A stretch of DNA of 64,000 nt. It comes from an uncultured Gemmatimonadales bacterium (GTDB lineage: Bacteria > Gemmatimonadota > Gemmatimonadetes > Gemmatimonadales > GWC2-71-9). The notes under the pieces are model-generated. The model was given only the letters and a program-made list of their open reading frames with translations, had not been told where the DNA came from and did no database searches. Both the position numbers and the translations under genes were made by a program. The stretch spans positions 431,490-495,489 of the forward strand of contig CAWGJN010000001.1 of assembly GCA_963822925.1 (NCBI GenBank), given 5' to 3'. Shown piece after piece: positions 31,811 to 62,394 of this stretch. Numbering within the stretch: the first letter of the stretch is position 1; every line of letters begins with the position of its first letter.

Positions 31811-31853
31811 GCCAGAGCCGGAGCCTCAACCCACCGGCCAGTGGACTGATTGG

Positions 31854-32243: not shown

Positions 32244-32372
32244 CGTCACTCGAATCGACCGACAGGTGAGTTCACGAGATTGCACGTCATCGCGGCGCTT
32301 GGGTATCGCCCGGTTGAGTTCGGGGGCGCGCCCATGCGCTCACCGGATTGACCGAGGCCGCAATGGATTCTA

Positions 32373-32470: not shown

Positions 32471-32869
32471 GTGTCATCTCACGATGCGCCAGATGAACCC
32501 ACGAGCGACTCAGGCCCGCTTGGCGAACGCGAGCTTGGCGTGGAGTACTGGCGGGCCCCCGAACTCTTCCTGCTTGATGCGGTCCTGACGCTGTTCGGGG
32601 TGATGGAGGCCGCGGGGACTCGGCCGCGAGTGTTCGTGTGCGACCTGCGAGCCGTGCCCATTCTCGATGCCCACGCGTGCCGTGTTATCTCCGTGCTGCT
32701 CGGACGCTGCCGGCGGTCGCGGATGGTGCTGATCCTGAGCGGCGTCGGGCCGACCGCCCTCCGCACCCTCGGAGCCGCCGGGACGCTCGACGAGTTGGGG
32801 CCCAGGAACGTGTTTGCGCATCTGAACGACGCGATGTCGCGCGCGCGCATACTGATGAACGATGACTAG
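32471..32869 (+). CDS. Stand-alone STAS domain protein
   Basis: YWRAPELFLLDAV...VFVCDLRAVPILDAHACRVISVLL...MVLILSGVGPTALRTLGAAG resembles SulP/SpoIIAA-type STAS. Its stop overlaps the convergent NuoB-like gene by 4 nt. Confidence 0.55.
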   Translation: MSSHDAPDEPTSDSGPLGERELGVEYWRAPELFLLDAVLTLFGVMEAAGTRPRVFVCDLRAVPILDAHACRVISVLLGRCRRSRMVLILSGVGPTALRTLGAAGTLDELGPRNVFAHLNDAMSRARILMNDD

Positions 32870-33669
32870 GTAGAGGCGTCGCCGGATCTCGCGCCAGGCG
32901 CACTCTGCCCGTCCAGTTGCCCCAGGAGCCGCAGCAGGCCATCCAGTACGGTCAGCGGATGCGGCGGGCACCCCGCGATCCACAGATCTACGGGCAGGTC
33001 GGCCGGTACTCCATTTCCCACCTCCGGGCTGTCCCGAAAGGGACCGCCATTGATCGCGCACGCGCCCACCGCGATCACCAGTTTTGGTTCCGGGATCGCG
33101 TCGTAGGTGCGATACACCGCGTCCCGCATGTTCCGGCTCACCGCCCCCGTGATCACCAGGCCGTCAGCGTGCCGGGGCGACGCGACGAACTGGATGCCGA
33201 ACCGCGCCATGTCGAAGACGACGTTGCCCAGGGCCACCAGTTCCGACTCGCATCCGTTGCAGCTTCCGGCCGCGACCGAGCGCAGACGCAGCGACCGGCC
33301 GAACAGCGTTCGGATGCGTTGCCCCAGCGCCTCGACGGCGGGGAGCTCCCCCGCCTCGCTGACCAGGCCGGAGCGCTCTCGTGCCGACAGGCGCGGATCG
33401 GCCGTGAAGGTGACGGCCCCATGGCGGCAAGCTGTTGCCTCCTCGGGCGCGAACAGGCACGCGCCAATGTCGAGCGATGCCCGGCCTTCCGGTGTCACGA
33501 CGAGCAGTGTGGAGGGCATAGCTGCCTGACACTCGTGGCAGGTCTCCAGGCATCGGGCGGCATCGAGCACCGGCCTGCCGCGAAAGCGCTCCGGGAACTC
33601 CGCGGCCCCGCCGGGAAATGCCGATGTCCGGGTGCCCTGCGCAAACCGGGTGCGGAGGAAGTCAAGCAT
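32866..33669 (-). CDS. NuoB/HycG/HyfI-like small subunit with a fused, degenerate ferredoxin-like N-terminal ~100 aa
   Basis: GSCNGCE, GACAINGG and GCPPHP (all four proximal-cluster Cys are present). The N-terminus has CLETCHEC...C-x10-C. Confidence 0.85.
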   Translation of the reverse strand: MLDFLRTRFAQGTRTSAFPGGAAEFPERFRGRPVLDAARCLETCHECQAAMPSTLLVVTPEGRASLDIGACLFAPEEATACRHGAVTFTADPRLSARERSGLVSEAGELPAVEALGQRIRTLFGRSLRLRSVAAGSCNGCESELVALGNVVFDMARFGIQFVASPRHADGLVITGAVSRNMRDAVYRTYDAIPEPKLVIAVGACAINGGPFRDSPEVGNGVPADLPVDLWIAGCPPHPLTVLDGLLRLLGQLDGQSAPGARSGDAST

Positions 33670-35180
33670 TAGAGGTCATGCCCCGCGTACGACAGGTTGA
33701 AGCTCTTGTTGCACAGCGGAAAGTCCGAGATCTGGTTTCCCGGCATCGCCGCTGCCAGCGCGCTCCAGTTGTGGAACGACGGATCCACCACCTTGTGCCG
33801 GCGGATCCCCCCGGCCTCGTCGGTGATCACCACGTGCGCGACTTCCCCCCGCCAGCCTTCTTCCAGCGCCACCACCAGTTCCGCGGGCCTGAGCGCGTCG
33901 CATGGCACCTGCGCGGCGCCCTTGGGCAGCGCGCCAACTTGCTCGATCACGAACTCGAGCGAGCGCTGCACCTCCAGCCAGCGCACCAGCGTTCGCGCCA
34001 GGACGTCGCCGGCCCACGCGGTGGACACCGGAATGTGGGCGAACCGGAACACCCCGTACGGGTGGTCGTGCCGCACATCCCGCGACACCTTGCACGCTCG
34101 CGCCGCCACACCGACCAGGCCGAGCTCGAGGCACTGCTGGGGCGTTACGGCACCGACGCCTTCGAGCCGCGCCTGCACCGAGGCGTTCTTGAGCAGCAGG
34201 TGTCCCACCGGGAGCAGCTCCTCGGCCAGCACCGCCAGGCGCGCGCGCATCTCGTCCGCCATCCCGGCCGGGATGTCGAAGAGCGCGCCCCCCGGTCGGA
34301 TGAGGCCCCGTCCGTAGCGGTTGCCCGAGAGGGTCATCAGGAGGTTCAGGCACTCACCCCGCATCCGCCCGAAGTACGCCGCGGCAGGCTGGTATGCGAT
34401 GTCTCCCGCAATCGCGCCGAGATCTCCGATGTGATTGGCCAGGCGCTCCAGCTCGAGGGCGATGCCGCGGATGGTCTGCGCCCTGGGCGTCTTGCGGCTC
34501 CGGGCCAGCGCCTCGATGGCACCGCAGGCGGCGCTCGCATGCGCGATAACGGTATCGCCGGCGATCGACTCCGCGATCAGGACGGCGTCCGGCCATCGGC
34601 GCGTTTCCAGCAGACGCTCGACTCCCCGATGTTGATAGCCGAGCATGATCTCGAGGAAGAGCACCTCCTCACCGTGTGCCTGGAAGCGGAAATGCCCCGG
34701 TTCGATGATGCCCGCGTGCACCGGTCCCACGGCGACCTCGTGAACCTCGCTGCCGTGGATCTGGAAGAATGGATACTCCTCCCGCTCCGCCGTCCCCCTC
34801 GACACCTGCCGACCCGCCTCGTCGGGTGGATGCCGGCGGACCGGCTTGAGCCACGGGTGCCCCTCCGGAACGACGCCGCACTGCTCCGCGATCTCCCGCT
34901 CGAACAGATGTGCCTCCGGGCACTCGGGAGTGAGCGCCGGATACGATCCATCCACCAACGTGGTCAACGCGCCGAGTTGACCGCGCTCATCCTGCGCCAG
35001 GATGGCCACCAGTTGGATCCGGTCCGCGAAGCCGGGCATGCCGAAGAACGCGACGAGCCGCCAGCCGTCCCGCACCGCCTGGCACACCGTGTCCCGGAAG
35101 CGTGGCACCGTCTCCATGGGGAGTGCCGCGAACGGGATGGTGCGGCGGTTGCGCAGGCCCAGTCCATCGAAGGCCGTCAT
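33669..35180 (-). CDS. NuoC+NuoD / HycE / HyfG-like 'large subunit' lacking all four [NiFe] cysteine ligands
   Basis: ATG 35180 overlaps the upstream stop (ATGA). EPGHFRF...YQHRGVERL are family motifs. SIAGDTVIAH replaces R-x-C-G-x-C-x3-H, and the protein ends NLSYAGHDL in place of DPCxxCxxR. Confidence 0.85.
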   Translation of the reverse strand: MTAFDGLGLRNRRTIPFAALPMETVPRFRDTVCQAVRDGWRLVAFFGMPGFADRIQLVAILAQDERGQLGALTTLVDGSYPALTPECPEAHLFEREIAEQCGVVPEGHPWLKPVRRHPPDEAGRQVSRGTAEREEYPFFQIHGSEVHEVAVGPVHAGIIEPGHFRFQAHGEEVLFLEIMLGYQHRGVERLLETRRWPDAVLIAESIAGDTVIAHASAACGAIEALARSRKTPRAQTIRGIALELERLANHIGDLGAIAGDIAYQPAAAYFGRMRGECLNLLMTLSGNRYGRGLIRPGGALFDIPAGMADEMRARLAVLAEELLPVGHLLLKNASVQARLEGVGAVTPQQCLELGLVGVAARACKVSRDVRHDHPYGVFRFAHIPVSTAWAGDVLARTLVRWLEVQRSLEFVIEQVGALPKGAAQVPCDALRPAELVVALEEGWRGEVAHVVITDEAGGIRRHKVVDPSFHNWSALAAAMPGNQISDFPLCNKSFNLSYAGHDL

Positions 35181-36601
35181 CGCGCCCCTCCCCCGAGACC
35201 CCAGGCTGCATCGGTGAGCACCTGCTGCAGTGCTGGCGGGATGTACACCCCGAGCAGCAGGACCAGCGCCAGCAGGACGATCGGGCCCGCGACCAGGAGG
35301 ACGCTCTCTCGTACCGGCGGCACCTCGGTTACCGGCGGGTCGTAGATCACCTCCAGGACCACCGCCGCCATGCCGACGAAGATCAGTGCGAGGAACGCGA
35401 GCATCGCGACGGCCACCCACGGGTGCCCCTGCCCGATGGCCGCGTTCAGGATGGTGAATTCGCTGAGGAACAGCCCGAATGGCGGTGACCCGGTCACGGC
35501 GAAGAGTCCGAGAAGCAGCAGCACCCCTGTCACCGGGGCGCGCCGGAGAATGCCGCGCGCGGCGCCCGCATGCGATGACCCGGTCGCGAGCACGACGTTC
35601 CCGACGGCGAGAAACATCAGCCCCTTGATCAGCCCGTTGTTGACGAGGTGAAGGACCGTCCCGTACCGGCCGACGCCGCCCAGCCCCAGGCCGAGCACCA
35701 ACAGGCCCATGTGTTCCACGCTCGAGTAGGCCAGCAATCGCTTCAGGTCCGACTGGCCGATCATGAAGGCCGCCGCCACCACCAGCGACATGACGCCGAA
35801 CGCCACGAGCAGGGGCTGCACGAACGCCGCCTGTCCGGCGGCCATCGTGATCTCGGTGATGCGCGCGAGCCCGAGGAACGCGCAGCTCGTCAGCGCGCCC
35901 GCCATGAGCCCCGCGACCAGGCTGGGCGCCTCACCATAGGTATCGGGCTTCCACGAGTGCAGCGGCGCCAGTCCCATCTTGGTTCCGTAACCGACCAGGA
36001 GGAAGATGAACGCCGTCTGCAGCAGCGCCGGGTGAAGGCTGCCACTTCCGGCGATCAGGTCCTCGAGCAGGAGAGGACGCCCTGAGGTCTGCGCGGCGGC
36101 CAGGAAGAACGTGCCGAGCAGCGCCAGCGCGATCCCCACGGACGACAGCAGCAGGTACTTCCACACCGCCTCCAGCGATCGGCGGTCGTGCCGATGGTAC
36201 ACGAGGGGCGCGAGCGCGAGAGTGGTTGTCTCCATGCCCACCCACAGGAGCGCCATGTGGTGGCTCACGGCCACCAAGGTGGCCGCGGCCAGGAATGCCA
36301 GCAGGCAGCTGACGAAGACCCGCCCTCCGCGCGGGGGCTCGGTTTGCAGGAACCCCGCCGCGTACACCGCGATCACGAAGAAGAGCAGGCTCACCAGCGA
36401 GACCACGAGGAGGCCCAGCGCGTCGATCGCGAGCCATCCGCCGACTTCCGGCGCGACCGGACCGCGCCAGAGATATCCCGCCGCGCCCAGGTGCAGGACC
36501 GAGGTCACGACCAGCAGGCCGAGACGCACGCTCAGCGGCCGCACCAGGTAGGCAGCCACCGCAGCGGCGATCGGGACCAGCACCATCGGCAGGAGGATCA
36601 T
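35177..36601 (-). CDS. HyfF/NuoM-N-like antiporter-type subunit
   Basis: 474-aa polytopic protein starting MILLPMVLVPIAAAV. TGATG overlap with the upstream gene. The longer track ORF is a shadow extension. Confidence 0.8.
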   Translation of the reverse strand: MILLPMVLVPIAAAVAAYLVRPLSVRLGLLVVTSVLHLGAAGYLWRGPVAPEVGGWLAIDALGLLVVSLVSLLFFVIAVYAAGFLQTEPPRGGRVFVSCLLAFLAAATLVAVSHHMALLWVGMETTTLALAPLVYHRHDRRSLEAVWKYLLLSSVGIALALLGTFFLAAAQTSGRPLLLEDLIAGSGSLHPALLQTAFIFLLVGYGTKMGLAPLHSWKPDTYGEAPSLVAGLMAGALTSCAFLGLARITEITMAAGQAAFVQPLLVAFGVMSLVVAAAFMIGQSDLKRLLAYSSVEHMGLLVLGLGLGGVGRYGTVLHLVNNGLIKGLMFLAVGNVVLATGSSHAGAARGILRRAPVTGVLLLLGLFAVTGSPPFGLFLSEFTILNAAIGQGHPWVAVAMLAFLALIFVGMAAVVLEVIYDPPVTEVPPVRESVLLVAGPIVLLALVLLLGVYIPPALQQVLTDAAWGLGGGAR

Positions 36602-37239
36602 CAATCCTTCAACTCGGTCAATCGGGTCGAGTCCAGCGAGTCGAATGCGCGATTGATGTGGAAGACCACGATGCCCATGATGAAGATGCCGACGAAGATG
36701 TCCAGCAGGACGCCCAGCTCGACGAGGAAGGGCACGCGCTCCGCCTGGCTCAGCCCGAAGACGTAGATCCCGTTCTCGAGGATCAGGTAGCCGACCACCT
36801 GCGTCAGCGCCTTGTTCCGCGTCGTCAGCACGATGAGGCCGATCATCACCGTCGCCAGTGCGACCGGGATGAGGAGGCCGCTCTCCGATTCCGGCAGGGG
36901 AATGCGCTGGGCAATGCCGAACGACAGGGCCACCACGATCGTCCCCAGCAGGAGCGACCCGGAGAATCCGATCAGGGGTTCGATCTCCCGGCGTACGGCC
37001 GCCTCGCGGATGGCCCAGGAGAGGAAGGTCGGCAGGAGGATCGCCTTCACCAGCAGCGTGCCGACCGCGAGCCCGATGATGTGCAGCGACCATCCCGGGT
37101 GCAGCGCAACGGGCAGCGCTGCCAGCAGCGCTCCCTGAATCGCGGTGGCGCGAATGGCCGAGCTCAACCGCGTGGTCCCCAACACCCAGAAATTGGTGAG
37201 GACCACGCCGAGGAGGAGCAGCTCATGCAGGTCTGACAT
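36601..37239 (-). CDS. HyfE-like membrane subunit
   Basis: 212 aa. The TRNKALTQVVGYLILENGIYVFG motif is typical of hydrogenase-4 component E. Confidence 0.75.
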   Translation of the reverse strand: MSDLHELLLLGVVLTNFWVLGTTRLSSAIRATAIQGALLAALPVALHPGWSLHIIGLAVGTLLVKAILLPTFLSWAIREAAVRREIEPLIGFSGSLLLGTIVVALSFGIAQRIPLPESESGLLIPVALATVMIGLIVLTTRNKALTQVVGYLILENGIYVFGLSQAERVPFLVELGVLLDIFVGIFIMGIVVFHINRAFDSLDSTRLTELKD

Positions 37240-37242
37240 GAT

Positions 37243-38154
37243 TCACCGCAGCAGGAGGATCACGCCGACGACGGCCAGGGCACCGGCCGCCACGAGGAAC
37301 TGGGGAAGCCGGTTCATCCGCAGTCGCGCCATGCTTGCTTCGACGATGCCGACGCCAACCGCCACTGCCACGAGTCCGCCGAGCAGGATCAGCGCCGCCA
37401 GCGGGGGCGACACCAGTGCGCGCGGCACCACGAGGCTCACCACCAGCGCGCCGAAGAGCGCGAGCTTGAGGGCGCTGCCGAACAGGATCATGGCGAGCTC
37501 CGGCCCGCTGTGATCGAGCACGATCACCTCGTGGATCATCGTGAGTTCGAGATGGGTCCCGGGATCGTCTACCGGCACCCGGGACGTCTCCGCGAGCGCC
37601 AGCATGAACAGGGCGACGGCCGTGAGGGCGAGCGATGGCAGGGTCAGGACCCAGACCGCCGCGAGCCGCTCTCCCAGCATGCCGGCAAGCGACAGTTCAC
37701 CGGTGGCGAGGACCAGCACCGTGAAGCAGAGGAACAGCACCGGCTCGGCGAAGGCGGAGACCGTGACTTCCCGGCTCGCCCCCATCCCCTCGAAGCTCGA
37801 CCCCGTATCCAGACCGGCGAGCACGAGCGCGAAGCGGCCCAGTGCCAGTAATCCGGCGAACGCAACGAGATCTCCGGAGAAGCTGAGCAGTGCCGAATGA
37901 CCGTCCAGCGGGAGGAGCGCAGCGGCGACGAGCACCGTCGCGAGGACCACGATCGGCCCGATGCGGAACACCGCCGTCGTAGTGCCGCTGTAGACGACAT
38001 TCTTCCGGAGCAGCTTCGCCAGGTCCCGGTACAGCTGCAGCACGGGTGCTCCCCGGCGCCCCGTCAGAAACGCCCGGGTGCGCGTCGCGATACCGGGCAA
38101 GGCGGGAGCCACGGCCAGGACCATCACCAGCGTCACGAAAGGCCAGGGCGTCAT
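37243..38154 (-). CDS. HycD/HyfC (NuoH)-like membrane subunit
   Basis: RRGAPVLQLYRDLAKLLRK and AETSRVPVDDPGTHLELTMIHEVIVLDHSG. ATGA overlap upstream. Confidence 0.85.
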   Translation of the reverse strand: MTPWPFVTLVMVLAVAPALPGIATRTRAFLTGRRGAPVLQLYRDLAKLLRKNVVYSGTTTAVFRIGPIVVLATVLVAAALLPLDGHSALLSFSGDLVAFAGLLALGRFALVLAGLDTGSSFEGMGASREVTVSAFAEPVLFLCFTVLVLATGELSLAGMLGERLAAVWVLTLPSLALTAVALFMLALAETSRVPVDDPGTHLELTMIHEVIVLDHSGPELAMILFGSALKLALFGALVVSLVVPRALVSPPLAALILLGGLVAVAVGVGIVEASMARLRMNRLPQFLVAAGALAVVGVILLLR

Positions 38155-40124
38155 GCTCCGCCCTGCCACTTCATCAGGTGATAAAGCAGAAGAAGCAGCG
38201 TGGAGACGACGGCCAGGAGGTACCATCGGATGCGCGCGCCCGGCCATGCTCGCAGGTGCCGGCTCCAGTCATCCAGTGCCCGCCACGCCGGCAGTACCAC
38301 CTGGTCCTGAACCAGGTCCACCGGGTGAGAGTGAAAGCTCGTCGGCTTTCGGGCCTCCCACACTGCGGCGAGCGGTCCGAATGCGGACAGCAGCGGCGCC
38401 GCAAAGGACGACGCGGTGTACTGCATTCTCGGGGTCAGCCCCGGCCCCGCGCACGCCCACGTCGCGCCGGCGCGGACCTCCCCCGCTCGGCCCAGGTACC
38501 CGCGGAAGAGCAGCACCGCGCCCCCAACCAGGATGAGTGCCGCGGCCACCGTGGAAACGCCCGTCGCCCCGGCGGCCCACGTCTGCACCCCGGTGCTTCC
38601 GTCCATCATTCGTGCCACGCTTGCGGCGACCAGCCGGACCGGCGCCAGCACCAGCGTCGGCACGAGGCCGATGACTGCGCAGAAGCCCGCGAGGACCAGC
38701 GCCGGCACCACCATGCCCGCCGTCGGTTCGCTCGCAGCGAGGCCATCGCCGAGGGGCGCGCGCGGCAGCCCGAGGAAGAGCACGCCATCGAGCTTGCTGA
38801 AGCACGCCAGCGCGAGCCCGCCGATCAGCGCCAGTCCCGCCGCGCCGAACACCACGAACCGCATCGCCTCCGTTGACTCCGCGGCCGTGAAGAGCGCGCC
38901 GAACACGACCCACTCGCTCACGAAGCCGTTGAGCGGCGGCAATCCCACGATGGCCACCGACCCGATGCCGAATGCCACCGCCGTCAGCGGCATCCGGCGC
39001 GCGAGACCGCCCAGCCGGTCGATCTCCCGCGTGCCCGTCGCCCGCACCACCGCCCCCGCGCCCAGGAACAGCAGACTCTTGAACAACGCATGGTTCAGCG
39101 TGTGCAGCAGTGCCCCCATGAACCCCAGCAGCGCCACCACCGGATGGCCATAGACCATCCCCAGGACCCCGACGCCCATGCCCAGCAGGATGATTCCGAT
39201 GTTCTCGACGCTGTGGTAGGCAAGCAGCCGCTTGAGATCGTGCTGGCCCAGCGCCCACAGCACGCCCAGCACACCCGACACCAGTCCCAGCCCGAACAGG
39301 GTCCACCCGAACCAGGCCGGCGGGGAGCCCAGGAGGTTGAGCACCCGGAGCAGCCCGTAGATCCCCATCTTGAGCATGACGCCGGATAGCACCGCGGAGA
39401 CGTGCGACGGGGCCGCGGCGTGCGCGCCCGGCAACCAGAAGTGCAGCGGGACGGCGCCGGCCTTGATGCCGAATCCCACGAGCGCAAAGACCAGCGCGAG
39501 CGTGCGCCCCGTGCTCGCGGCCTGGCTTCCGGCGGCGAGGTCGGCGAAGCTGCGGCCTTCGGCATGCGCGCTCAGGGCGGCAAACATCCCGAAGAGCGCG
39601 AGGAGGCTCGTATGGGTGAGCACGATGTAGACCAGGCCCGCGCGACGAACCTCGCCCCGCTCACTCTCGAACACGACGAGCAGGTACGCGCTCACCGCCA
39701 TCACTTCCCAGGAGGCGAGGAACGGCATCATCGCCTGCGACGTGACCACCCCGACCAGGGCCACCAGGAGCAGGGCGAACAGGCCGTGCACCACGTGGAC
39801 ACTGCGATGCGCGCGCTCCGGCGCCAGGTACGCCGTCCCGAACACTCCGGCGGCGGCCCCGACAGGGAGAATGACCAACACGAACCAGGCCGAGAGCGGA
39901 TCGAGACCAAAGCTCCACGGACCACCGGGCAGTGACCCCGCAAGTGCGGCGGTCGGCACCGGTGCGCCACCCAGCACACGGATCGCTGGAATTACTCCCA
40001 GGACGCACCCGGCGAGGAGCAACACGGCGTAGAGTCGGTCGGCTGCGGTGCTCCATCGCCGAAAGAGCACCGCGCAGACGGCGCCTGCCAGAATGCAGCC
40101 CGCGCCCCAGATGAGCCCGCTCAC
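38151..40124 (-). CDS. HyfB/HycC (NuoL)-like antiporter-type subunit, copy 2
   Basis: 657 aa. WLPGAHAAAPSHVSAVLSG core and a C-terminal TWACAGPGLTPRMQYTASSFAAPL extension. GTGA overlap upstream. Confidence 0.85.
   Translation of the reverse strand: MSGLIWGAGCILAGAVCAVLFRRWSTAADRLYAVLLLAGCVLGVIPAIRVLGGAPVPTAALAGSLPGGPWSFGLDPLSAWFVLVILPVGAAAGVFGTAYLAPERAHRSVHVVHGLFALLLVALVGVVTSQAMMPFLASWEVMAVSAYLLVVFESERGEVRRAGLVYIVLTHTSLLALFGMFAALSAHAEGRSFADLAAGSQAASTGRTLALVFALVGFGIKAGAVPLHFWLPGAHAAAPSHVSAVLSGVMLKMGIYGLLRVLNLLGSPPAWFGWTLFGLGLVSGVLGVLWALGQHDLKRLLAYHSVENIGIILLGMGVGVLGMVYGHPVVALLGFMGALLHTLNHALFKSLLFLGAGAVVRATGTREIDRLGGLARRMPLTAVAFGIGSVAIVGLPPLNGFVSEWVVFGALFTAAESTEAMRFVVFGAAGLALIGGLALACFSKLDGVLFLGLPRAPLGDGLAASEPTAGMVVPALVLAGFCAVIGLVPTLVLAPVRLVAASVARMMDGSTGVQTWAAGATGVSTVAAALILVGGAVLLFRGYLGRAGEVRAGATWACAGPGLTPRMQYTASSFAAPLLSAFGPLAAVWEARKPTSFHSHPVDLVQDQVVLPAWRALDDWSRHLRAWPGARIRWYLLAVVSTLLLLLYHLMKWQGGA
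38905..39455. repeat. Near-identical segment shared with 40872..41422 (offset 1967)
   Basis: 213 bp with 1 mismatch (38905..39117), a diverged ~110 bp, then ~149 bp with 1 mismatch (39231..39379). Read directly. Confidence 0.85.
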
Positions 40125-42100
40125 GGCTGCCGCACGATCGCGGCGAAGAGCGCGCCCAGGAGAAGCACCACCGTGAGCACCATGTACTGGAGGTACCGCG
40201 TGATCCGCCCCTGCTGCAGCGGGCGCAGCACCTCGGTGAGGGCGCGGACTCGCTGCCAGACGGGAGCGGCCACCCTGGCCAGGACCAGGTCGCCCGGGTC
40301 GGTGCTGAGCGAGGTCGCATCACGCTTGACCCGAGGTGCCGCGACGCTGCCGAACGCGCGCAGCACCGGCGCGCTGAACGACGAGGCGGTGTACTGCATC
40401 CGGCCGTCCGGACGACCATAGGCGCATCCCCACGTCATCCCGATGACCGGCTCTTGCAATCGGCCGGCGCGCAGACGCAGATACCACAGCAGCACCAGCA
40501 GCATTGCCAGCAGTGCACCGAGGGTGCCAAGGAAAGGGAGGGCGCTCGTAACAGCAGACCCGGCCTCGGTGATTCCCTCGGTGCCCCCCGCTACAATCGT
40601 CCCGACGACGATAGCAGCGGGCCGCACGGCAATCGCAGGGAAGGCGCCGAGCCCGACGCACAATACCGCCAGCGCAAGCATGGGAACCACGAGGCCCGGT
40701 TCATCCCGCACCTCGGCCTCCGGTGCACGCGGCCGGCCCAGGAACACCCCGCCAGTCACCCGGCTGAAGCACGCCAGGGCAAGCCCGCCGATCAGGCCGA
40801 GGCCGGCAATGCCGAGAGCCACGAAGGCCGGCAGCATCCGGTTCTGCACCCCGCGCAAGAGACCTTGCGCTACGACCCACTCACTCACGAAGCCGTTGAG
40901 CGGCGGCAATCCCACGATGGCCACCGACCCGATGCCGAATGCCACCGCCGTCAGCGGCATCCGGCGCGCGAGACCGCCCAGCCGGTCGATCTCCCGCGTG
41001 CCCGTCGCCCGCACCACCGCCCCCGCGCCCAGGAACAGCAGACTCTTGAACAACGCATGGTTCAGCGTGTGCAGCAGTGCCCCCGTGAACCCGAGCAGCG
41101 CCACCACTGGGTGGTCGTAGGCCACTCCCACGACCCCCAGCCCCATGGCCAGCACGATGATCCCGATGTTCTCGACGCTGCTGTAGGCGAGAACACGCTT
41201 GAGATCGTGCTGGCCCAGCGCCCAGAGCACGCCCAGCACACCCGACACCAGTCCCAGCCCGAACAGGGTCCACCCGAACCAGGCCGGCGGGGAGCCCAGG
41301 AGGTTGAGCACCCGGAGCAGCCCGTAGATCCCCATCTTGAGCATGATCCCGGACAGCACCGCGGACACGTGAGAGGGAGCCGCCGCGTGCGCGCCCGGCA
41401 GCCAGAAATGCATGGGCACCACACCCGCCTTCATCCCGAACCCGACCAGTGCGAGCAGTAGTACGAGCCCACCTCCCCACGGAATCGCGGGTGCCGCCGC
41501 GGCCAATGCGTCGAAGGTGAGGTCGGGAGTGCTGCGCCCCCAAACCAGGAACATGGCGATCAGCGCGAGTGTTCCGGTATGCGTCAGCACGAGGTAGATC
41601 AGGCCGGCGCGACGGACCGCTTCGCGGTCCCCATCGAACATGATGAGGAAGTACGCGCTCAGCGCCATGATCTCCCATGCCAGCAGGAAGAGCACGGCGG
41701 CATGCGCCACGACGACCATCACCATCGCGGCGAGCAGAAGCGCAAACACCGCATGCACCCACGCGACCTGCCGGTGCGCGCGCTCCTGCGCGAGGTAGCT
41801 CGTGCCGTAGCTGGTGGCTGCCGCCCCGGCGACGCCGAGCACGACCAGGAACCACCCCGCGAGGGGATCGACCAGAATGGCCCACGGCCCCCCGGGCACG
41901 CGCGGCTCAACCGACAGTGCGATGGGCGATCCACCAAGCAGGACCGCCCCGCCCGCCCCGGCGCAGGCGAGCAGGCCCGGAAGTACGAGCATCTCGTGGA
42001 TGAGATCAGCGAGCCGGGGAGCCCGCGCGAACACCAGCGACGCGACGCCGCCCAGGAGTACCAGCCCGACACCACTGATCAGGAGGGCGGCCGGATTCAT
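40121..42100 (-). CDS. HyfB/HycC (NuoL)-like antiporter-type subunit, copy 1
   Basis: 659 aa with the same core and a TWGCAYGRPDGRMQYTASSFSAPV extension. ATGA overlap with the upstream HTH-EIIA gene. Confidence 0.85.
   Translation of the reverse strand: MNPAALLISGVGLVLLGGVASLVFARAPRLADLIHEMLVLPGLLACAGAGGAVLLGGSPIALSVEPRVPGGPWAILVDPLAGWFLVVLGVAGAAATSYGTSYLAQERAHRQVAWVHAVFALLLAAMVMVVVAHAAVLFLLAWEIMALSAYFLIMFDGDREAVRRAGLIYLVLTHTGTLALIAMFLVWGRSTPDLTFDALAAAAPAIPWGGGLVLLLALVGFGMKAGVVPMHFWLPGAHAAAPSHVSAVLSGIMLKMGIYGLLRVLNLLGSPPAWFGWTLFGLGLVSGVLGVLWALGQHDLKRVLAYSSVENIGIIVLAMGLGVVGVAYDHPVVALLGFTGALLHTLNHALFKSLLFLGAGAVVRATGTREIDRLGGLARRMPLTAVAFGIGSVAIVGLPPLNGFVSEWVVAQGLLRGVQNRMLPAFVALGIAGLGLIGGLALACFSRVTGGVFLGRPRAPEAEVRDEPGLVVPMLALAVLCVGLGAFPAIAVRPAAIVVGTIVAGGTEGITEAGSAVTSALPFLGTLGALLAMLLVLLWYLRLRAGRLQEPVIGMTWGCAYGRPDGRMQYTASSFSAPVLRAFGSVAAPRVKRDATSLSTDPGDLVLARVAAPVWQRVRALTEVLRPLQQGRITRYLQYMVLTVVLLLGALFAAIVRQP
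40872..41422. repeat. Partner of the 38905..39455 repeat
   Basis: See the partner feature. Confidence 0.85.
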
Positions 42101-42804
42101 TGCCCGGGGCGCTTGTTGACCGCGAACGACCCGGTCGTCTGCACCTCGAGGTCGCGGATGCGCTCCAGCAGTTGTTCCGTCGAGGCACGATCCTTCAGCA
42201 ACCGCCGCAATTCCGGGTTGCGCAGCGCGAACGCGAGCTGGGCGAGAATCCGGAGGTGCGAGGGAACCGTGGCGCTCACCACGAGGAAGACCGCGTGCAC
42301 CGGCAGGCCATCCATCGCGCCGAATTCGACCGGCCGGCGCAACAGGCAGAGGGTGACGAACGGCTGATCCACGTGAAGCAGGATTGGATTGCGCACGTGC
42401 GGGATGGCGATGCCATCGCCGATGGCGGTCGACCCCATCGCCTCGCGCGCTTCGAGCACGGCCAGCAGGAAGTCACGGTCCACCTCGGCCGACAAGGGCA
42501 GCCGCGTCACGATGGCGGCCAGTACCGTGTTCTTGTCGTCCCCCTCCACATCCCGATGGATGCCGCCCGTCTCGAGCAATCGCGAGAGCGGCGGCACCTC
42601 CTCCGGAGACCGGCGGGCCTCCTCCAACAGACCCCGGGATGCGGGAACCCCGTGCTCCACCGCCCACTGCCACACCTCGATCGCATTCAGGTGCAGGCGT
42701 TCGTTCAGGCGGTGCACCGGGAGGTCGCGCTCCTTGATCCACCGGCGGAGCGTGGACTCGCCCACGTTGAGGTAGGCTGCGGCCTGTCGAATGGTGATCT
42801 GCAT
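42097..42804 (-). CDS. HTH (excisionase/MerR-like) plus PTS EIIA type-2 (PtsN-like) fusion protein
   Basis: N-terminal ITIRQAAAYLNVGESTLRRWIKERDLPVHR. EIIA core GSTAIGDGIAIPHVR with the phosphorylatable His. Confidence 0.75.
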   Translation of the reverse strand: MQITIRQAAAYLNVGESTLRRWIKERDLPVHRLNERLHLNAIEVWQWAVEHGVPASRGLLEEARRSPEEVPPLSRLLETGGIHRDVEGDDKNTVLAAIVTRLPLSAEVDRDFLLAVLEAREAMGSTAIGDGIAIPHVRNPILLHVDQPFVTLCLLRRPVEFGAMDGLPVHAVFLVVSATVPSHLRILAQLAFALRNPELRRLLKDRASTEQLLERIRDLEVQTTGSFAVNKRPGQ

Positions 42805-42808
42805 GAGA

Positions 42809-43522
42809 TTATCGGCCTGTTGCCCCGGCGTCGCCGAGCAGTACGTGCTCGGTGTCGCGCACCAGGGTGACGACGGCAGCCGCCGCGGTCGCGCTCCGCA
42901 CGCCCTCCAGGAACCCGGGATGGCGACAGAGGCTCGCCACTCGCGCGAGCAGGATCAGGTGGCGACGGGGATCGCGCGCCAGCAGCAGGAACAGGAGATC
43001 GGTCGGGATGGCGCCAAACGCGTCGAAGCCCACCGGCGCCGGGAGCCGGCCGATCGCGAGCAGGTCACCGCGGCGCAACGCGCGACCCTCCCACCGTGCC
43101 GTATGGAGCAGCGCGGCGCCACACTCCGTGGCCGTGCTCGCCAGCTCCTCCCGCTCCCACACCCGCCGCACGACCTCGTCGACGTCGACCGGCTCGGGAA
43201 ACGTGACCTTCCGGATCAGGCTCTCGATCATCGCACGCCGTGACCCGGCCTGGATCGGGAGAAGCGCGTTCTCCGGCGCGAGCGCCTCACTCAAGGAGCA
43301 CCCGGACGTCCGCCATTCGGCTTCCATCGCCCGCAGGTGAGGCGGGCTGATGCGCTCCATCCGGAGGTCCATCCAGTAGTCGACGACGGCTCGCCGGAAC
43401 CGCCAGTGCCCGCCGACCTTGAAACCCGGGAGTTCGCCCCGCCCGAGCAGCCGGTACACTGTGCGCTCCGAGAGCTGGAGATGCTCCGCCAGCTGCTTCA
43501 GCGTCAGGACGTCCGCCTGCAT
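42809..43522 (-). CDS. HTH (excisionase/MerR-like) plus degenerate EIIA-like fusion protein
   Basis: N-terminal LTLKQLAEHLQLSERTVYRLLGRGELPGFKVGGHWRF. The C-terminal half parallels the neighbouring protein, with GAALLHTAR in place of GIAIPH. Confidence 0.65.
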   Translation of the reverse strand: MQADVLTLKQLAEHLQLSERTVYRLLGRGELPGFKVGGHWRFRRAVVDYWMDLRMERISPPHLRAMEAEWRTSGCSLSEALAPENALLPIQAGSRRAMIESLIRKVTFPEPVDVDEVVRRVWEREELASTATECGAALLHTARWEGRALRRGDLLAIGRLPAPVGFDAFGAIPTDLLFLLLARDPRRHLILLARVASLCRHPGFLEGVRSATAAAAVVTLVRDTEHVLLGDAGATGR

Positions 43523-43533
43523 GCATTGACCGT

Positions 43534-43551
43534 GTTGAACGCGCGTTCAAC
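43534..43551. promoter_or_regulatory. Perfect 18-bp palindrome GTTGAACGCGCGTTCAAC, 12 nt upstream of the operon's first start codon
   Basis: Read directly. It is flanked by CATTGAC (43524, 43566) and TTGACTGTCAA (43568..43578; TTGACA on the operon strand). Confidence 0.45.
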
Positions 43552-43610
43552 GTATCGGGACATGACATTGACTGTCAACCGCTGCCACCGGTGACGGGCG
43601 CTCGCCCGGA

Positions 43611-43863
43611 GGCCGTAGGCCTGCCGAGCAGCCATACCATGGTGGCCTTCGCCGGAGCGGGCATGGGAAGCTTTCTCTTTCCGCGGACCTGGCCCGCATG
43701 GATGTCGCTCGCGGCAGGGTGTGCGTTCACCCGCGGCGCGGCGCAGGCGCATTTCCTGAGTGATGTCATGCTGGCGGGAATTGGAGGGCTCTTCGTAGCA
43801 CGGCTGGCATGGCACTGGGGCGCTTGGCTATCCCGCCGGCCGACGGCCAAAGAGGATTATTGA
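43611..43863 (+). pseudogene. 3' fragment of a second PAP2 phosphatase gene (motifs 2 and 3 only)
   Basis: GLPSSHTMVAFAGAGMGSFLFPRTWPAWMSLAAGCAFTRGAAQAHFLSDVMLAGIGGLFVARL is about 88% identical to residues of the 30566..31195 protein. The N-terminal two thirds are absent. Confidence 0.8.
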
Positions 43864-43888
43864 CAGAACAACTATACAACTATATAGT
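43860..43888 (+). promoter_or_regulatory. Sigma-70-type promoter TTGACA-N17-TATAGT in an AT-rich island
   Basis: TTGACA 43860..43865, a 17-nt spacer, TATAGT 43883..43888. The 10-bp palindrome ACTATATAGT (43878..43887) overlaps the -10. Confidence 0.5.
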
Positions 43889-43895
43889 AATGCAT

Positions 43896-45272
43896 ATGAG
43901 GACACCTCCCAGCGACGACCGGCAGCCCCGGACCAGCCTCGCTCTCGCGGCCCTGACGCTCTTGTCCGTGTCGAGCCTGGCCGCCCAGCAGCCGCTGACC
44001 CTGGCCGACGCCTTCCGCCGCGCCGACTCGGCCGCGTTCGCCAATCGCATCGCCGCCGGCGATGCCCGCATCAGCAGCGCCGGGGCCACCGCGACGCTTC
44101 AGGGGATCCTCCCCACGGTCCGTGCCGTGGCGGGCTACGTCCGGTCCAACGACCCGCTCGCTGCCTTCGGGTTCACCCTGCAGCAGCGCGCCGTGACGCT
44201 TGAGTCCTTCAACCCGGCGAGCCTCAACTACCCCGCCCCTGTCACCAACTGGAATGGCGGGTTCGTCGCTGAAGTCCCTCTCATCAATGTCGACGCCTGG
44301 TACGGCCGCGCCGCCGCCTCGAGCGCCGCCGCCGCCGCGACTGCGAGTACCCAGTGGACTCGCGAGGTTACCCGCGTCAACATAGTTCGTGCCTACTTCG
44401 GCGCTGTCCTCGCCGGCGAGCAGGCCACGACCCTCGTCAGCTCCGCGGAAGCCGCCCATGCCCACGTGCGCCAGGCGGAATCGATGGTCGCCAACGGCAT
44501 GGCCACGCGCTCCGACGCCCTGCTCGCCTCGGTGCAGGCCGGCCAGGTCGACGCGCAACTCATCGGCGCAACGGGCGAGGCGCGCATTGCCCGCCATCGC
44601 CTGGCCGTCGTCCTTGGCCAGCCAGGAGACACCAGCTTCACCCTGCCCGATTCGCTGCCGTTGGCCGCAACCATTCGCGCCCTGCCTCCCGACTCCGGCC
44701 CTGACTCCGCCAGCGCACGCCTCGACGTGACGGCCGCCCGGCTCGGCGTCGAAGCCGCGCAGCGCGACGTGCGCCGTGCCAACGCGAAGTACCTCCCCCG
44801 CGTCAACGGCTTCGGTCGCTACGACTGGAACAGCCCCGACCAGCCATTTGGCGGTCAGGGCAGTTACACCGTTGGCATCATGGCATCGTGGTCACCCTTC
44901 TCCGGCGCGTCCGAGATCGCGGCTCGGCAGGAGGCGCGCGGCCGTGCTGAGGCCGCGAGCGCCGGGGCCGAAGCCGCCGCGGCGACCGCCAATCTCGAGC
45001 GGCAAGCCACCGCCACCCAGCGTGAGGTAGCCCTCGTCCGGCTCGACATCGCCGAGACCGCGGTGGTGCAGGCCGCGGAGGCACATCGCATTGTCGCCCG
45101 GAAGTACGCCGGCGGGCTCGCGACGGTCGCAGAGCTCCTCGCGGCCGCCGCGGTCGAGACCCAGGCGCGCCTCGCACTCTCTGAATCCCGGTACCAGGTC
45201 ATCGTTTCCGACGCTGCCGCCCGGCAGGCGACCGGGCGCGACCTGATGGCCCTCACTGCGCTGGAGAACTGA
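43896..45272 (+). CDS. TolC-family outer-membrane efflux protein
   Basis: Signal peptide LALAALTLLSVSSLAAQQPLTLADAF. Two-repeat OEP pattern. An alternative ATG lies at 43890. Confidence 0.8.
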   Translation: MRTPPSDDRQPRTSLALAALTLLSVSSLAAQQPLTLADAFRRADSAAFANRIAAGDARISSAGATATLQGILPTVRAVAGYVRSNDPLAAFGFTLQQRAVTLESFNPASLNYPAPVTNWNGGFVAEVPLINVDAWYGRAAASSAAAAATASTQWTREVTRVNIVRAYFGAVLAGEQATTLVSSAEAAHAHVRQAESMVANGMATRSDALLASVQAGQVDAQLIGATGEARIARHRLAVVLGQPGDTSFTLPDSLPLAATIRALPPDSGPDSASARLDVTAARLGVEAAQRDVRRANAKYLPRVNGFGRYDWNSPDQPFGGQGSYTVGIMASWSPFSGASEIAARQEARGRAEAASAGAEAAAATANLERQATATQREVALVRLDIAETAVVQAAEAHRIVARKYAGGLATVAELLAAAAVETQARLALSESRYQVIVSDAAARQATGRDLMALTALEN

Positions 45273-46296: not shown

Positions 46297-49200
46297 ATGG
46301 GCATTGCCGGCCGGGTCGCGCAGGCTTTTCTCCGTTCCAAGCTCACGCCGCTGGTGACGGTGGCGTCACTCGCCGTCGGCGCCGTGGCGATGCTCGCCAC
46401 GCCGCGCGAGGAAGAGCCGCAGATCTCCGTGCCGATGATCGACGTGATGGCCACGCTGCCCGGCGCGTCGCCCACCGAGGTCGAGAACCTCCTCACCCGG
46501 CCGATCGAGAAGCTCATGTGGCAGGTTCCGGGCGTCGAGTACGTGTACTCCATGGCCGGCGAGGGCATGACGCTTGTGACCGTGCGCTTCAAGGTCGGTG
46601 AGGACCAGGATCGCGCCGTCAGTCGCGTCTTCGCGAAGATCGGCGCGGAGGCCGACCGCGCTCTGCCCGGCATCATGCCGCCGCTCATCAAGCCCCACTC
46701 GATCGACGACGTGCCGATCCTGGCGCTCACGCTTCATGGCGGTGGCTACGGCTCCGACGCCCTGCGCGCCCTGGCCACCCATCTGGCCGACGACCTCGCC
46801 ACCATCCCCGACCTGGCCCGCATCGACCTGATCGGCGGCGAGCCCACCCAGTTGCGCGTGACGCTCGACCCGTCGCGACTGGCCGGCAGCGGCGTCACCC
46901 CGGGCGAGGTGATGCAGGCGCTGCGCGCCGCCAACGTACAGTTGCCCGCCGGCGAGTACGCCACCGCCAACGAGGTGTTCCTCGTGTCGGTGGGCGCGCC
47001 CATCCGCACCGCGCGTGATGCCGGCGACGTCGTGGTGGCCAATCGCACGGGACCCGTCTACCTGCGCAATGTGGCCACGGTCGTCGAGGCGCCTGCCGAA
47101 GCCGCCGACTACGTGAGCCACACGGCACGCGGTGAGTCCGGCGAGCAGGCCGTCACTCTTGCCATCGCCAAGCGGCCCGGCGTCAACGCCACGGACATCG
47201 CCCACCTCGCCCTGGCCCGGGTGGAGGAGGTGCGCGGACGGCTGCTGCCGGCCGACGTCCGCGTGAACGTCACCCGCAACTACGGCGAGACCGCGAACGA
47301 GAAGGCCAATGAGCTCATGCTCCACCTGCTCATCGCGACCCTCTCGGTCACGGTGCTCATCGGGCTCTTCCTGGGATGGCGGGAGGCGGTGGTCGTACTG
47401 GTCGCGGTACCGGTCACCCTCGCGCTGACGCTCTTCGTCTACTACGTGCTCGGGTATTCCCTCAACCGGATCACCCTCTTCGCGCTGATCTTCTCCATCG
47501 GCATCCTGGTGGATGATGCCATTGTGGTGGTAGAGAACATCTACCGTCACCTGCAGATGGGCGACCGGGAGCCGGAAGTCGCAGCGGTCGAGGGCGTCGA
47601 CGAGGTGGGCAACCCCACGATCCTCGCCACCTTTACCGTCATCGCGGCGATCCTGCCCATGGCATTCGTCTCCGGTCTCATGGGGCCCTACATGCGGCCC
47701 ATCCCGGTGGGCGCGTCCGCCGCAATGCTTGCGTCGCTCGCAGTGGCGTTCATCATCACCCCGTACCTCGCATTGCGCCTGCTCCGCGGCCACGTCAAAC
47801 AGGTGGCCACACCTCATGATGCCACCCACGAGCCGGGGGAAGCCTCGCGGTTCGCGAAGTTGTATGACCGCATCATGGCGCCGCTGATGGACCGCCCGCG
47901 CCTGCGCACCGGGTTCTACGCCGGGATAATGGCGCTCCTCCTCGGTTCGGTCAGCCTCCTGGCGCTCAAGCTGGTCGAGGTCAAGATGCTGCCCTTCGAC
48001 AACAAGTCGGAGTTCCAGGTCGTGCTCGACCTGCCGGAGGGCGCGACGCTCGAGACCTCCAATGCCGCCGCGCAGGCGGTGGCGACGTACTTGGGCACCG
48101 TGCCGGAGGTCGTGAGCACCGAGAGCTACGCCGGCACCGCCGCGCCCTTCAACTTCAACGGCCTGGTGCGGCACTACTTCATGCGCCGTGCTCCCAACGT
48201 TGCCGACGTGCAGGTGAACCTGTTGCCCAAGGGCGATCGCCGCCGCCAGAGCCACGCCATCGCCGTTGTCGGTCCGCCCGGCAGTGGACTCGATCGCCCG
48301 GGCCTTCGGCGCAAATGCCAAGATCGCGGAGATTCCGCCCGGTCCACCCGTCCTCTCCACCCTCGTGGCCGAGGTCTACGCCGCCGACGACAGCACCCGG
48401 CTCGTGGCGGCGCGAGCATGTCAAGGCGATCCTGCTCGCGACACCCGGCGTGGTCGACGTGGACTGGACCGTGGAAGCTCCCGAGGCGAAGCGCCTCTTC
48501 CGGGTGGACCGGGTGCGTGCGGCCGAGGCCGGTGTGTCGGTGGAACAGGTGGCCCAGGCGCTCACGATGTCCCTGTCGGGCGCCGGCGCCGGGCTGGCCA
48601 GCGTGCCGACGGCCCGCGAGGGTGTGCTCATCGTGCCGCGGCTCGGCCTCGCGAGCCGGAGCGGCGTCGAGGCACTGCTCGCCGTCCCGGTCGCGACGCC
48701 GCACGGGCCCACGCCACTCGCGCGCTTCGTCACGGTGGATTCCACCACGCGCGAGCCGCTGCGCATGCGCAAGAACCTCCGCCCCGTCATCTATGTCACG
48801 GGCGACGTCGCCGGCACCATCGAGTCGCCGGTGTACGCGATCCTGGCCATGAACCGCGCGCTCGACACGCTCCGGGTGAATGGGGCCGCGATCAAGCGCT
48901 ACAACGCCACCGCGCCGACGCGCCTCGACGAAACCGCCATCAAGTGGGATGGCGAGTGGCAGGTCACCATCGAGGTGTTCCGCGACCTCGGCATCGCCTT
49001 CGCCGCGGTGCTGGTGCTGATCTATGTGCTGGTGGTGGGCTGGTTCCAGTCGTTCAAGGTCCCGCTCGTCATCATGGCGCCGATCCCCTTGACCCTGATC
49101 GGCATCCTCCCGGGGCATGCGCTCACCGGCGCCTTCTTCACCGCCACGTCCATGATCGGGATGATCGCGCTCGCCGGGATCATCGTCCGGAACTCGATCC

Positions 49201-49454
49201 TGCTGGTGGATTTCATCCAGCTCGCCGAGGAGCGCGGCCGGCCGCTGCGCGAAGCGGTGCTGGAGGCCGGGGCGGTACGGTTCCGCCCGATCGCGCTGAC
49301 CGCGGCGGCGGTGGTCATTGGCGGGCTGGTGATGGTGCTGGACCCGATCTTCCAGGGCCTCGCGGTGGCCCTGATCAGTGGCGCGATCGTCGCCACGCTG
49401 CTCACGATGGTCGTGGTCCCGCTGCTCTACTGGGAGATGGGCCGCGAGCGCTGA
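46297..49454 (+). pseudogene. RND efflux permease interrupted by two +1 frame changes (~48266 and ~48412)
   Basis: Phase 1 reads to ...RRQSHAIAV. Phase 2 reads SVRPAVDSIARAFGANAKIAEIPPGPPVLSTLVAEVYAADDSTRLVAA. Phase 0 reads EHVKAILLATPGVVDVDW... through to the natural C-terminus at 49454. Confidence 0.8.
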
Positions 49455-54414: not shown

Positions 54415-54627
54415 ATGACCCCCCTTGTTCTCAGTATCAATGGCATGTCATGCGGACACTGTCTCAACGCAGTGCGGCGCGCGCTCAGCAACACGCCCGG
54501 CGTGGCCATCGAGTCGGTGCGCATCGGCCGCGCGGATGTGCTGTACGATCCCGCGCTGACTTCGCCGGCGCGTGTTGCCGCCGCTGTCACCGACGCCGGC
54601 TACGAAGCCGCCGCCCATGTCGGATAA
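54415..54627 (+). CDS. copZ: Copper chaperone, HMA domain
   Basis: [24 protein letters not shown] (MxCxxC). GGAGAG lies 5 nt upstream. Confidence 0.85.
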
Positions 54628-57061: not shown

Positions 57062-57085
57062 ACGCAGTTCGTTACGGAGCGTCTC

Positions 57086-62373: not shown

Positions 62374-62394
62374 GCCCGCCTTTATCTTTCCCCC

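Follow-up and report, generated by a model that had tools for sequence, protein, structure and literature searches.

The window analyzed here is a 64,000-nucleotide (nt) stretch of contig CAWGJN010000001.1 from an uncultured Gemmatimonadales bacterium. On its minus strand (GC 67%) lies a tightly packed run of genes in which two tandem genes, A1 and A2, lead an operon of the Ech-hydrogenase-related (Ehr) type. A1 (42809..43522, 237 amino acids (aa)) and A2 (42097..42804, 235 aa) each encode an HTH_17 helix-turn-helix (HTH) domain fused to a domain resembling EIIA-Ntr of the phosphotransferase system (PTS). This assignment comes from Pfam, NCBIfam, AlphaFold2 (AF2) models and Foldseek, and it agrees with a sequence-only reading of the same DNA, made without database searches, which had placed two tandem HTH-EIIA fusions at the head of the operon. 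Gene starts were inferred. With these starts A1 and A2 are 4 nt apart (TAA TCTC ATG), and A2, the first conserved gene of this operon type, runs directly into the first HyfB-like gene: the plus strand reads TCAT at 42097..42100, where the A2 stop codon (TGA) and the next ATG overlap by 4 nt (ATGA), just as that reading had described.

Two HyfB/EhrA-like antiporter-type subunits come next on the minus strand. Subunit 1 (40121..42100, 659 aa) matches Proton_antipo_M in Pfam (2e-54) and hydrogenase 4 subunit B in NCBIfam (555 bits, below the cutoff of that model), and subunit 2 (38151..40124, 657 aa), recognized by both Pfam and NCBIfam, overlaps it by 4 nt. They are followed by a NuoH/HyfC/EhrB-like subunit (37243..38154; Pfam NADHdh, 2.7e-33); its open reading frame (ORF) is open to 38247, and the ATG at 38154, which forms an ATGA overlap with the stop of the second HyfB-like gene, is the likely start. 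Further along the same strand are a HyfE/EhrC-like membrane subunit (36601..37239, 212 aa; NCBIfam hydrogenase 4 membrane subunit, 7.8e-27, with a weak Oxidored_q2 match), a HyfF/EhrD-like antiporter-type subunit (35177..36601, 474 aa; Pfam Proton_antipo_M and NCBIfam hydrogenase 4 subunit F, 9e-92), a NuoC-NuoD/HyfG/EhrL-like 'large subunit' (33669..35180, 503 aa; Pfam Complex1_49kDa and Complex1_30kDa), and a NuoB/HyfI/EhrS-like small subunit fused to a degenerate HyfH/HycF-like ferredoxin half (32866..33669; Pfam Oxidored_q6 and NCBIfam NuoB).

This group-4-hydrogenase-like gene set is collinear with the Ehr cluster of Geotalea daltonii and with the gene list published for Geobacter sulfurreducens (ehrA-ehrS, GSU0734 and GSU0739-0745), and the operon of the window is an Ehr operon in the Geobacter sense. 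Like its Geobacter counterpart, which has the same gene set and order, it encodes a large subunit without the [NiFe] cysteine motifs: as read in the sequence, AGDTVIAH occupies the RxCGxCxxxH position, and there is a single Cys near the C-terminus. The small subunit retains the four cluster Cys (CxxC...C...CP), and its residues 1-105 match the formate hydrogenlyase Fe-S subunit (NCBIfam, 2e-8). The ferredoxin half joined to it corresponds to the N-terminal half of a HyfH/HycF-type 2x[4Fe-4S] protein, with degenerate Cys motifs (C-x3-C-x2-C...MP and C-x10-C). The function of Ehr has been described as unknown (PMC12342949, PMC6349859, PMC7894505), and in G. sulfurreducens its abundance is higher on formate (PMC7894505). 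Where the present operon type goes beyond these accounts is at its head, since the same three papers treat only the membrane and 'hydrogenase-like' subunits.

The domain assignments of the two leading proteins are clear. A1 matches HTH_17 (PF12728) over residues 5-51 (E = 4.4e-15, 56.1 bits) and PTS_EIIA_2 (PF00359) over residues 83-221 (E = 5.2e-14); A2 matches PTS_EIIA_2 over residues 77-217 (E = 4.4e-25) and HTH_17 (E = 6.7e-8, 33.1 bits), and both HTH_17 scores lie above the cutoff of 27. Both proteins also exceed the cutoff of 28.8 bits for TIGR01764, 'excisionase family DNA-binding' (A1, 47.5; A2, 34.5), and their Pfam matches to MerR and MerR_1 fall below cutoff. The HTH motifs picked out from the sequence alone, LSERTVYRLL...GGHWRF in A1 and VGESTLRRWI in A2, are borne out by these matches. 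No Pfam match to a PTS regulation domain (PRD) or to EIIB was obtained for either protein, and the two are 22% identical to each other.

By sequence, the best solved relatives of A2 are PtsN/EIIA-Ntr proteins (E ~1e-11). The alignment of A2 with E. coli PtsN (1a6j) keeps an offset of 63 throughout, which places R120, H136 and H183 on PtsN R57, H73 and H120; we take H73 to be the phosphorylation site, and the PtsN numbers were cross-checked only against the alignment ranges. Among 29 representatives of the A2 family that are 32-60% identical to it, G131, P135, H136 and H183 are invariant, E121 is nearly so, and R120 is kept in at least 90%. The AF2 model of A2 built on the alignment of these representatives has a predicted local distance difference test score (pLDDT) of 91.6, and in it two linker helices connect a winged HTH (residues 1-50) to the EIIA domain; in Foldseek, PtsN structures are its top matches, with a template modeling (TM) score to target of ~0.8. 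A1 carries GAALLH where A2 has GIAIPH, and its family motif is G-x-A-[LF]-L-H-T-A-R-W. The sequence-only reading had given both motifs correctly but had called that of A1 degenerate, and here it needs revision. R124 and H140 are invariant in the A1 family and H188 is present in at least 90%, and the A1 model (pLDDT 86.2) also finds PtsN structures as its best Foldseek matches, with a TM score of 0.86 to 2a0j that is better than the score for A2 (3urr, 2a0j and 1a6j were matched at 0.8-0.86). Because the Arg/His/His triad is kept and the model is confidently EIIA-Ntr-like, A1 is divergent, not degenerate. Neither protein is a PtsN equivalog by score: TIGR01419 requires 138.7 bits, where A2 reaches 61.4 and A1 reaches 40, and NF008145 gives 49.5 against 221. 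No model describing an HTH-EIIA fusion was found in the NCBIfam search of A1 and A2.

The proteins of the window are present exactly in public assemblies, and their close relatives are from Gemmatimonadales or Gemmatimonadota wherever they are named. The family of A2, in contrast, is not confined in this way: an exhaustive HMMER search of 50%-identity representatives with A2 gave 242 clusters with E<1e-30, and of the 150 listed clusters nearly all are full-length, at ~230 aa, which makes the HTH-EIIA fusion a large family. Loci were collected in two scans. The first covered one genome per species and used the pattern GDGIAIPH and an alignment of 7 closer sequences, and the best 80 of 587 confirmed relatives were kept; the second covered metagenomes for a more distant 'AIPHPR' subgroup, with G[IV]AIPHPR[SNT] and a second pattern, and the best 80 of 579 confirmed relatives were kept. 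The resulting counts include closely related loci and are not counts of independent events. The loci of the genome scan comprise 22 from Gemmatimonadota and others from Verrucomicrobiota, Lentisphaerae/Victivallales, Planctomycetota, Desulfobacterota (including Geobacteraceae), Acidobacteriota, Myxococcota, Spirochaetes, Omnitrophota, Eisenbacteria, Fermentibacteria and Methylomirabilota, as well as one betaproteobacterium.

The Ehr proteins of the window were used as tblastn queries against these loci. At least 700 nt of DNA follow the A2 homologue in 131 of them, and in 125 of these a HyfB-like gene on the strand of the A2 homologue begins no more than 900 nt beyond it. This pairing spans at least 13 phyla and A2 homologues down to ~30% identity, and Ehr lies downstream in 11 of the 12 loci less than 35% identical to A2. 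The sequence-only reading had made its proposal depend on the pairing being conserved in related genomes, and the outcome is strongly in its favor. Where the contig continues, the order is HyfB-(HyfB)-NuoH-HyfE-HyfF-NuoCD-NuoB, the same as in the window. ORF clustering of the first 84 fetched loci (the genome scan and four context loci) revealed no further gene conserved across phyla, and the conserved unit therefore consists of the regulator and Ehr. The same clustering of 84 loci found no conserved electron-input module such as formate dehydrogenase; together with the degenerate ferredoxin Cys and the loss of the [NiFe] ligands, this makes the redox competence of the Ehr complex questionable.

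The system is also found in culture. In Geotalea daltonii FRC-32 (CP001390.1) an HTH-EIIA gene stands ahead of the six-gene Ehr cluster, and NCBI names it 'helix-turn-helix transcriptional regulator, MerR family, PTSIIA domain-containing'; the HTH-PTSIIA architecture is thus already recognized by genome annotators. An HTH-EIIA gene precedes Ehr in Geobacteraceae metagenome-assembled genomes as well, and the complete genomes OY969426.1, OY759590.1 and OY821638.1 also carry the system. Ehr clusters of the Mycobacterium type have different regulators. What appears to be new is a minimal HTH-EIIA(Ntr) one-component regulator probably dedicated to an operon of the complex I family. The sequence-only reading knew of no characterized example that links EIIA(Ntr)-like domains to complex-I-family modules, and our literature search likewise found no paper on the HTH-EIIA regulator or on its link with Ehr.

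Other arrangements are seen at individual loci. In a Nitrospirota contig (L166), the regulator shares its strand with a single HyfB-like gene and the six other Ehr genes are divergent, with a small ORF and a PemK-type toxin gene between the two parts. At L121:9446-12162 a family member only distantly related to A2 (31% identity) has a stand-alone EIIA_2 gene before it and an amino-acid permease after it, with no Ehr; as the permease takes the place of Ehr, the HTH-EIIA design has been re-used there for another transporter. Finally, at L002:1-8469 a canonical nuoA-N complex I operon lies ~1.5 kb upstream of the regulator-Ehr unit and divergent from it, an arrangement not present in the window.

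The stop-start coupling seen in the window is widespread. It was scored at 129 loci, where the HyfB start was taken as the first one possible from 10 nt ahead of the A2 stop onward. Stop and start share a 4-nt NTGA overlap at 52 loci and a 1-nt overlap at 6, they are separated by 0-15 nt at 45, and the gap is larger at 26, so that 103 of the 129 have an overlap or a gap of at most 15 nt. Co-transcription, probably with translational coupling, is thus typical of the family and not peculiar to the window. The sequence-only reading had considered such a linkage unusual for a pure regulator and had seen in it a hint of a stoichiometric accessory role. The linkage itself is real and common, but it fails by itself to separate a regulator from a subunit, and the step to a subunit is not supported, given a promoter whose candidate operator co-varies with the HTH. 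We find no support for a stoichiometric subunit role of A1 or A2.

A promoter-like region can tentatively be drawn upstream of A1 on the minus strand (43549..43578), with TTGACA at 43578..43573, an 18-nt spacer and TACGTT at 43554..43549. A candidate operator was read in the sequence at its downstream edge: the perfect 18-nt palindrome GTTGAACGCGCGTTCAAC (43534..43551), of the form GTTGAAC-N4-GTTCAAC, lies 11 nt upstream of the A1 ATG and adjoins or overlaps the -10-like hexamer. The promoter-like region also contains another small palindrome, TTGAC-N-GTCAA, at 43568..43578. Palindromes of the TTGAAC-N4-GTTCAA type occur upstream of A2 in 6 of 24 Gemmatimonadota regions (the window, L002, L005, L006, L021 and L025); the background rate is 0.001 per 160 nt. 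Three of these palindromes, those of the window, L002 and L005, overlap a promoter-like TTGACA / 17-18 nt / TACGTT arrangement at its 3' end, and those of L021 and L025 fill the promoter spacer. A consensus promoter and terminator scan of 42000..43900 called nothing on the minus strand; the promoter of the window falls below its threshold, with a -10 that matches at 3 of 6 positions.

In phyla other than Gemmatimonadota a different element is found in the 160-200 nt ahead of the regulator gene, the direct repeat TGTCC-N5-TGTCC, with the consensus (A/T)TGTCCA-N3-(A/T)TGTCCAA. Detection relied on simple patterns, the strict one being TGTCY-N5-TGTCY. The direct repeat is present in 28 of the 57 genome loci outside Gemmatimonadota; over both scans, the strict form occurs in 48 of 130 non-Gemmatimonadota upstream regions and a relaxed form in 12 more, and at ~10 further loci the repeat is on the opposite strand, inside the promoter spacer. 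Elsewhere the strict repeat has ~5 matches in 3 Mb, and the TGTCC direct repeat was found in 0 of the 24 Gemmatimonadota upstream regions. The repeat mostly starts 28 nt after a TTGAC(A) box, directly past the -10 and over the expected transcription start, and it is often exactly 49 nt before the ATG. At L160, where the Ehr operon is divergent from A2, the repeat follows a TTGACA/-10 pair directed into Ehr, which indicates that the element travels with the Ehr promoter. In a group of loci (L027, L029, L030, L034, L035, L039 and L057) the 5' untranslated regions share, besides the two TGTCC repeats, a 49-nt leader of conserved length; it has a third, inverted half-site (TGGACA/TGGGCA) ~20 nt further on, perhaps a third operator site, perhaps a leader element.

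The type of operator follows the sequence class of the HTH. Proteins with the signature SEKT[IV]YRWI...QYRFNRAELLEWA accompany the TGTCC repeat, and the Gemmatimonadota A2 proteins, which read ESTLRRWI...ERLHLNAIEVWEWA, accompany the palindrome; the Geobacteraceae HTH differs again, and G. daltonii has TGACA/TGTCA half-sites. This co-variation, together with the fact that the HTH-EIIA gene is the only conserved non-Ehr gene of the unit, is our main argument that A2-type proteins bind the promoter of their own operon. The conserved operator overlaps the promoter and shifts in type along with the HTH sequence, which likewise points to autoregulation by ordinary DNA binding.

We propose, with a probability that we put at about 0.6, that A2 is a dedicated, autoregulated transcription factor of the Ehr operon it heads and that its EIIA-Ntr sensor domain is phosphorylated by an HPr/NPr-type carrier. 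The excisionase/MerR-type winged HTH of A2 would bind the repeated half-sites that overlap the Ehr core promoter, and the placement of sites over -10/+1 has a geometry that is most simply that of a repressor. The EIIA-Ntr-type C-terminal domain, which keeps the phospho-acceptor His and the flanking Arg and His, would serve as the signal input. The most likely input would be reversible His phosphorylation by the HPr/NPr-type carrier, altering DNA binding; the case for it is that both paralogous families retain all three phosphotransfer residues identically, and PTS phosphorylation of A2 is plausible on these grounds. As the product of the first, translationally coupled gene, the regulator would rise and fall in step with the complex.

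Several observations weigh against this proposal. No enzyme I (EI), HPr/NPr or HprK gene was found in the window or in any of the ~165 loci, a weak negative given that such genes need not be linked. Within the window, Pfam detected no EI, HPr, HprK or EIIB/C among the ~47 likely genes and hence no PTS gene in the 64 kb, and tblastn with E. coli HPr gave no match, either in the window or in the fetched loci. A2 also scores far under the NCBIfam PtsN cutoff (61 versus 138.7 bits), the -10 box of the window is weak and goes uncalled by the consensus scan, and about half of the loci have no match to the simple operator patterns. The candidate operator could, moreover, belong to another, unlinked regulator.

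Some of these observations would sit more easily with A2 as a transcription factor that no PTS phosphorylates and whose EIIA-like domain responds directly to an ion, a partner protein or a small molecule, its His and Arg forming a ligand site. The missing PTS components near the ~165 loci and the distance of the family from true PtsN, below the NCBIfam cutoffs, fit such a sensor, as do its occurrence in very diverse, partly anaerobic and uncultured lineages and the replacement of G-I-A-I-P-H in A1 by G-x-A-[LF]-L-H-T-A-R-W with the fold kept. We nevertheless hold this to be unlikely, for all three PtsN phosphotransfer residues are found at identical spacing in both families; that is what phosphotransfer predicts, and a new ligand site would need none of it. 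The HTH, for its part, belongs by HTH_17 and TIGR01764 to an excisionase family, and the best NCBIfam match of A1 is the HTH of MADS1 (59 bits against a cutoff of 80), which could make the pair a mobile-element excisionase or an anti-phage MADS HTH protein carried as unrelated cargo beside the operon. To this we give almost no credence: the MADS1 match does not reach its cutoff and is limited to the 49 residues of the HTH, the window shows no integrase, tRNA or repeat context, and the Ehr synteny across at least 13 phyla excludes it.

A different kind of proposal moves the action of the proteins to the membrane. They might act mainly post-translationally, as accessory or regulatory subunits produced in parallel with the complex, whose EIIA-like domain docks on Ehr or on the neighboring SulP/STAS transporter and gates ion translocation. 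The tight coupling to the first antiporter-like gene, with its 52 NTGA overlaps and 103 short gaps or overlaps among 129 loci, would suit such a role, as would the repeated adjacency to SulP-STAS genes and the fact that the EIIA-type fold is common to the cytoplasmic regulatory domains of SLC4 proteins. There is also precedent, in that direct binding of PtsN to cation transporters is established, with unphosphorylated PtsN acting on TrkA, KdpD and the K+/H+ antiporter YcgO (PMC11808508). Docking would, however, leave unexplained both the strongly conserved N-terminal HTH in every member of the family and the matching repeat on the promoter, and head-of-operon overlaps are common among ordinary autoregulators too, so that we regard docking in place of transcriptional control as unlikely. 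It could add to DNA binding rather than replace it, for instance if the regulator were sequestered at the membrane. A further and equally doubtful extension of this idea would make the HTH-EIIA protein a two-way coupler, in which PTS-Ntr-type phosphorylation and docking on Ehr and/or SulP-STAS jointly set the activity of the complex and its transcription. If that were so, carbon, nitrogen or K+ status and the working state of the ion module would together control Ehr, for example through membrane sequestration; it would be the first case in which a complex-I-family machine is under PTS-type control, and the SulP genes would lead to a role of Ehr that may lie in energizing anion or bicarbonate handling rather than in hydrogenase activity.

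The dedicated, phosphorylation-responsive transcription factor that we favor would differ in defined ways from the systems it resembles. A1 and A2 share with PtsN the EIIA-Ntr fold, the Arg/His/His residues at identical spacing, a regulatory rather than sugar-transporting role and, given the PtsN targets TrkA, KdpD and YcgO, a theme of cation and proton transport. PtsN itself is a stand-alone protein of ~160 aa that is usually found beside rpoN/hpf, whereas A1 and A2 are fused to a DNA-binding domain, score far under the equivalog cutoffs and are not in an rpoN cluster, with A2 heading the Ehr operon instead; the presumed output of A2 is transcription of one operon, and that of PtsN is protein-protein control of many targets. 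The PRD activators (MtlR/LicR/ManR) are likewise transcription factors with an EIIA domain (Mtl/Fru-type) that are switched by PTS His phosphorylation. They are, however, proteins of 600-700 aa from Firmicutes, with an Mga-type HTH, two PRDs and an EIIB-like domain, that act on sugar operons, in contrast to the minimal 235-aa HTH_17-EIIA design of A2, which has no PRD or EIIB and whose target is a respiratory-complex-like operon. MerR activators proper have a C-terminal coiled-coil dimerization helix with an effector site and an operator in a 19-20 bp spacer, whereas A2 has a C-terminal EIIA domain and promoter spacers of 17-18 nt. In layout the unit resembles ArsR-, CsoR- and TetR-type operons, in which the regulator comes first and is translationally coupled and the operator lies over -10/+1, but A2 combines an excisionase/MerR-like winged HTH with a PTS-type sensor in place of a metal or drug site.

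Complex I and the group 4 hydrogenases have widespread relatives in the Ehr complexes, and a dedicated regulator would give an experimental handle on these complexes. The signal that switches it would tell when the cell wants Ehr, and deletion of the regulator should force Ehr on or off; this is testable, as the system is present in the cultured Geobacter relative G. daltonii and probably also in G. sulfurreducens. The proposal would also extend EIIA-Ntr-type signaling to a minimal one-component transcription factor.

A1 is an accessory, lineage-specific paralogue that, in the sequences compared, appears confined to Gemmatimonadota. Its family has ~137 clusters, all from Gemmatimonadales where named, and A1-type genes (at least 37% identity) are found in only some Gemmatimonadota loci: on a 3.6-Mb Gemmatimonadota contig (L002), A2 alone precedes Ehr and A1 is absent. 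At L005:9840-10000, where A2 is 90% identical to that of the window, the promoter palindrome is kept and only the last ~45 nt of A1 remain between it and A2, which looks like a recent deletion. Since most of A1 has been lost there, A1 is dispensable. By tblastn identities, A1 is nearer to non-Gemmatimonadota A2 proteins (~30%) than to the A2 beside it (~22%). In the Gemmatimonadota that have it, A1 may add a second input or a heteromeric partner.

SulP transporters (Sulfate_transp and STAS) recur beside the HTH-EIIA/Ehr unit (L007, L008, L009, L010, L011, L014, L015, L019, L021, L025, L036, L040, L131, L156 and L161), and most exceptions to the A2-Ehr pairing involve them. At L036 a SulP gene lies between the regulator and Ehr, at L131 and L161 it follows the regulator in the place of Ehr, and in many Gemmatimonadota loci it is directly upstream, divergent, or convergent after the NuoB-like gene. 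In the window, the spot that a full SulP transporter has in related loci is occupied by a stand-alone STAS-domain ORF on the plus strand (32471..32869; Pfam STAS, 1.8e-6), convergent with the end of the operon and 27% identical by tblastn to the C-terminus of the L036 SulP. In Foldseek, the EIIA domain of the A1 and A2 models also matches cytoplasmic regulatory domains of the eukaryotic SLC4 exchangers Band 3, AE2 and NDCBE (E ~1e-4), a likeness to anion/bicarbonate exchangers that is worth noting beside these anion-transporter neighbors. The recurrence of SulP genes may hint at what Ehr does physiologically.

An Rfam scan of the whole window returned no RNA family and hence no known riboswitch or leader. 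After the Ehr operon, on the same strand, come a DUF983 gene and a TetR-family gene (31154..32285); a TetR gene at the equivalent place in L002, L021 and L025 (82%, 64% and 68% identity) suggests a second, lineage-specific regulator nearby. On the plus strand upstream of A1, an AcrB-type resistance-nodulation-division (RND) pump gene (46297..49454) is broken across two frames near 48300: an 851-aa ORF covers ACR_tran positions 11-630 and the remainder lies in the ORF 48315..49454, reflecting a frameshift, a pseudogene or an assembly error. A sigma-54-dependent activator (3881..5212), a copper P-type ATPase with a CsoR-type repressor (54572..57388) and an NDH-2-type NADH dehydrogenase (62365..63687), all on the plus strand, are ordinary neighbors.

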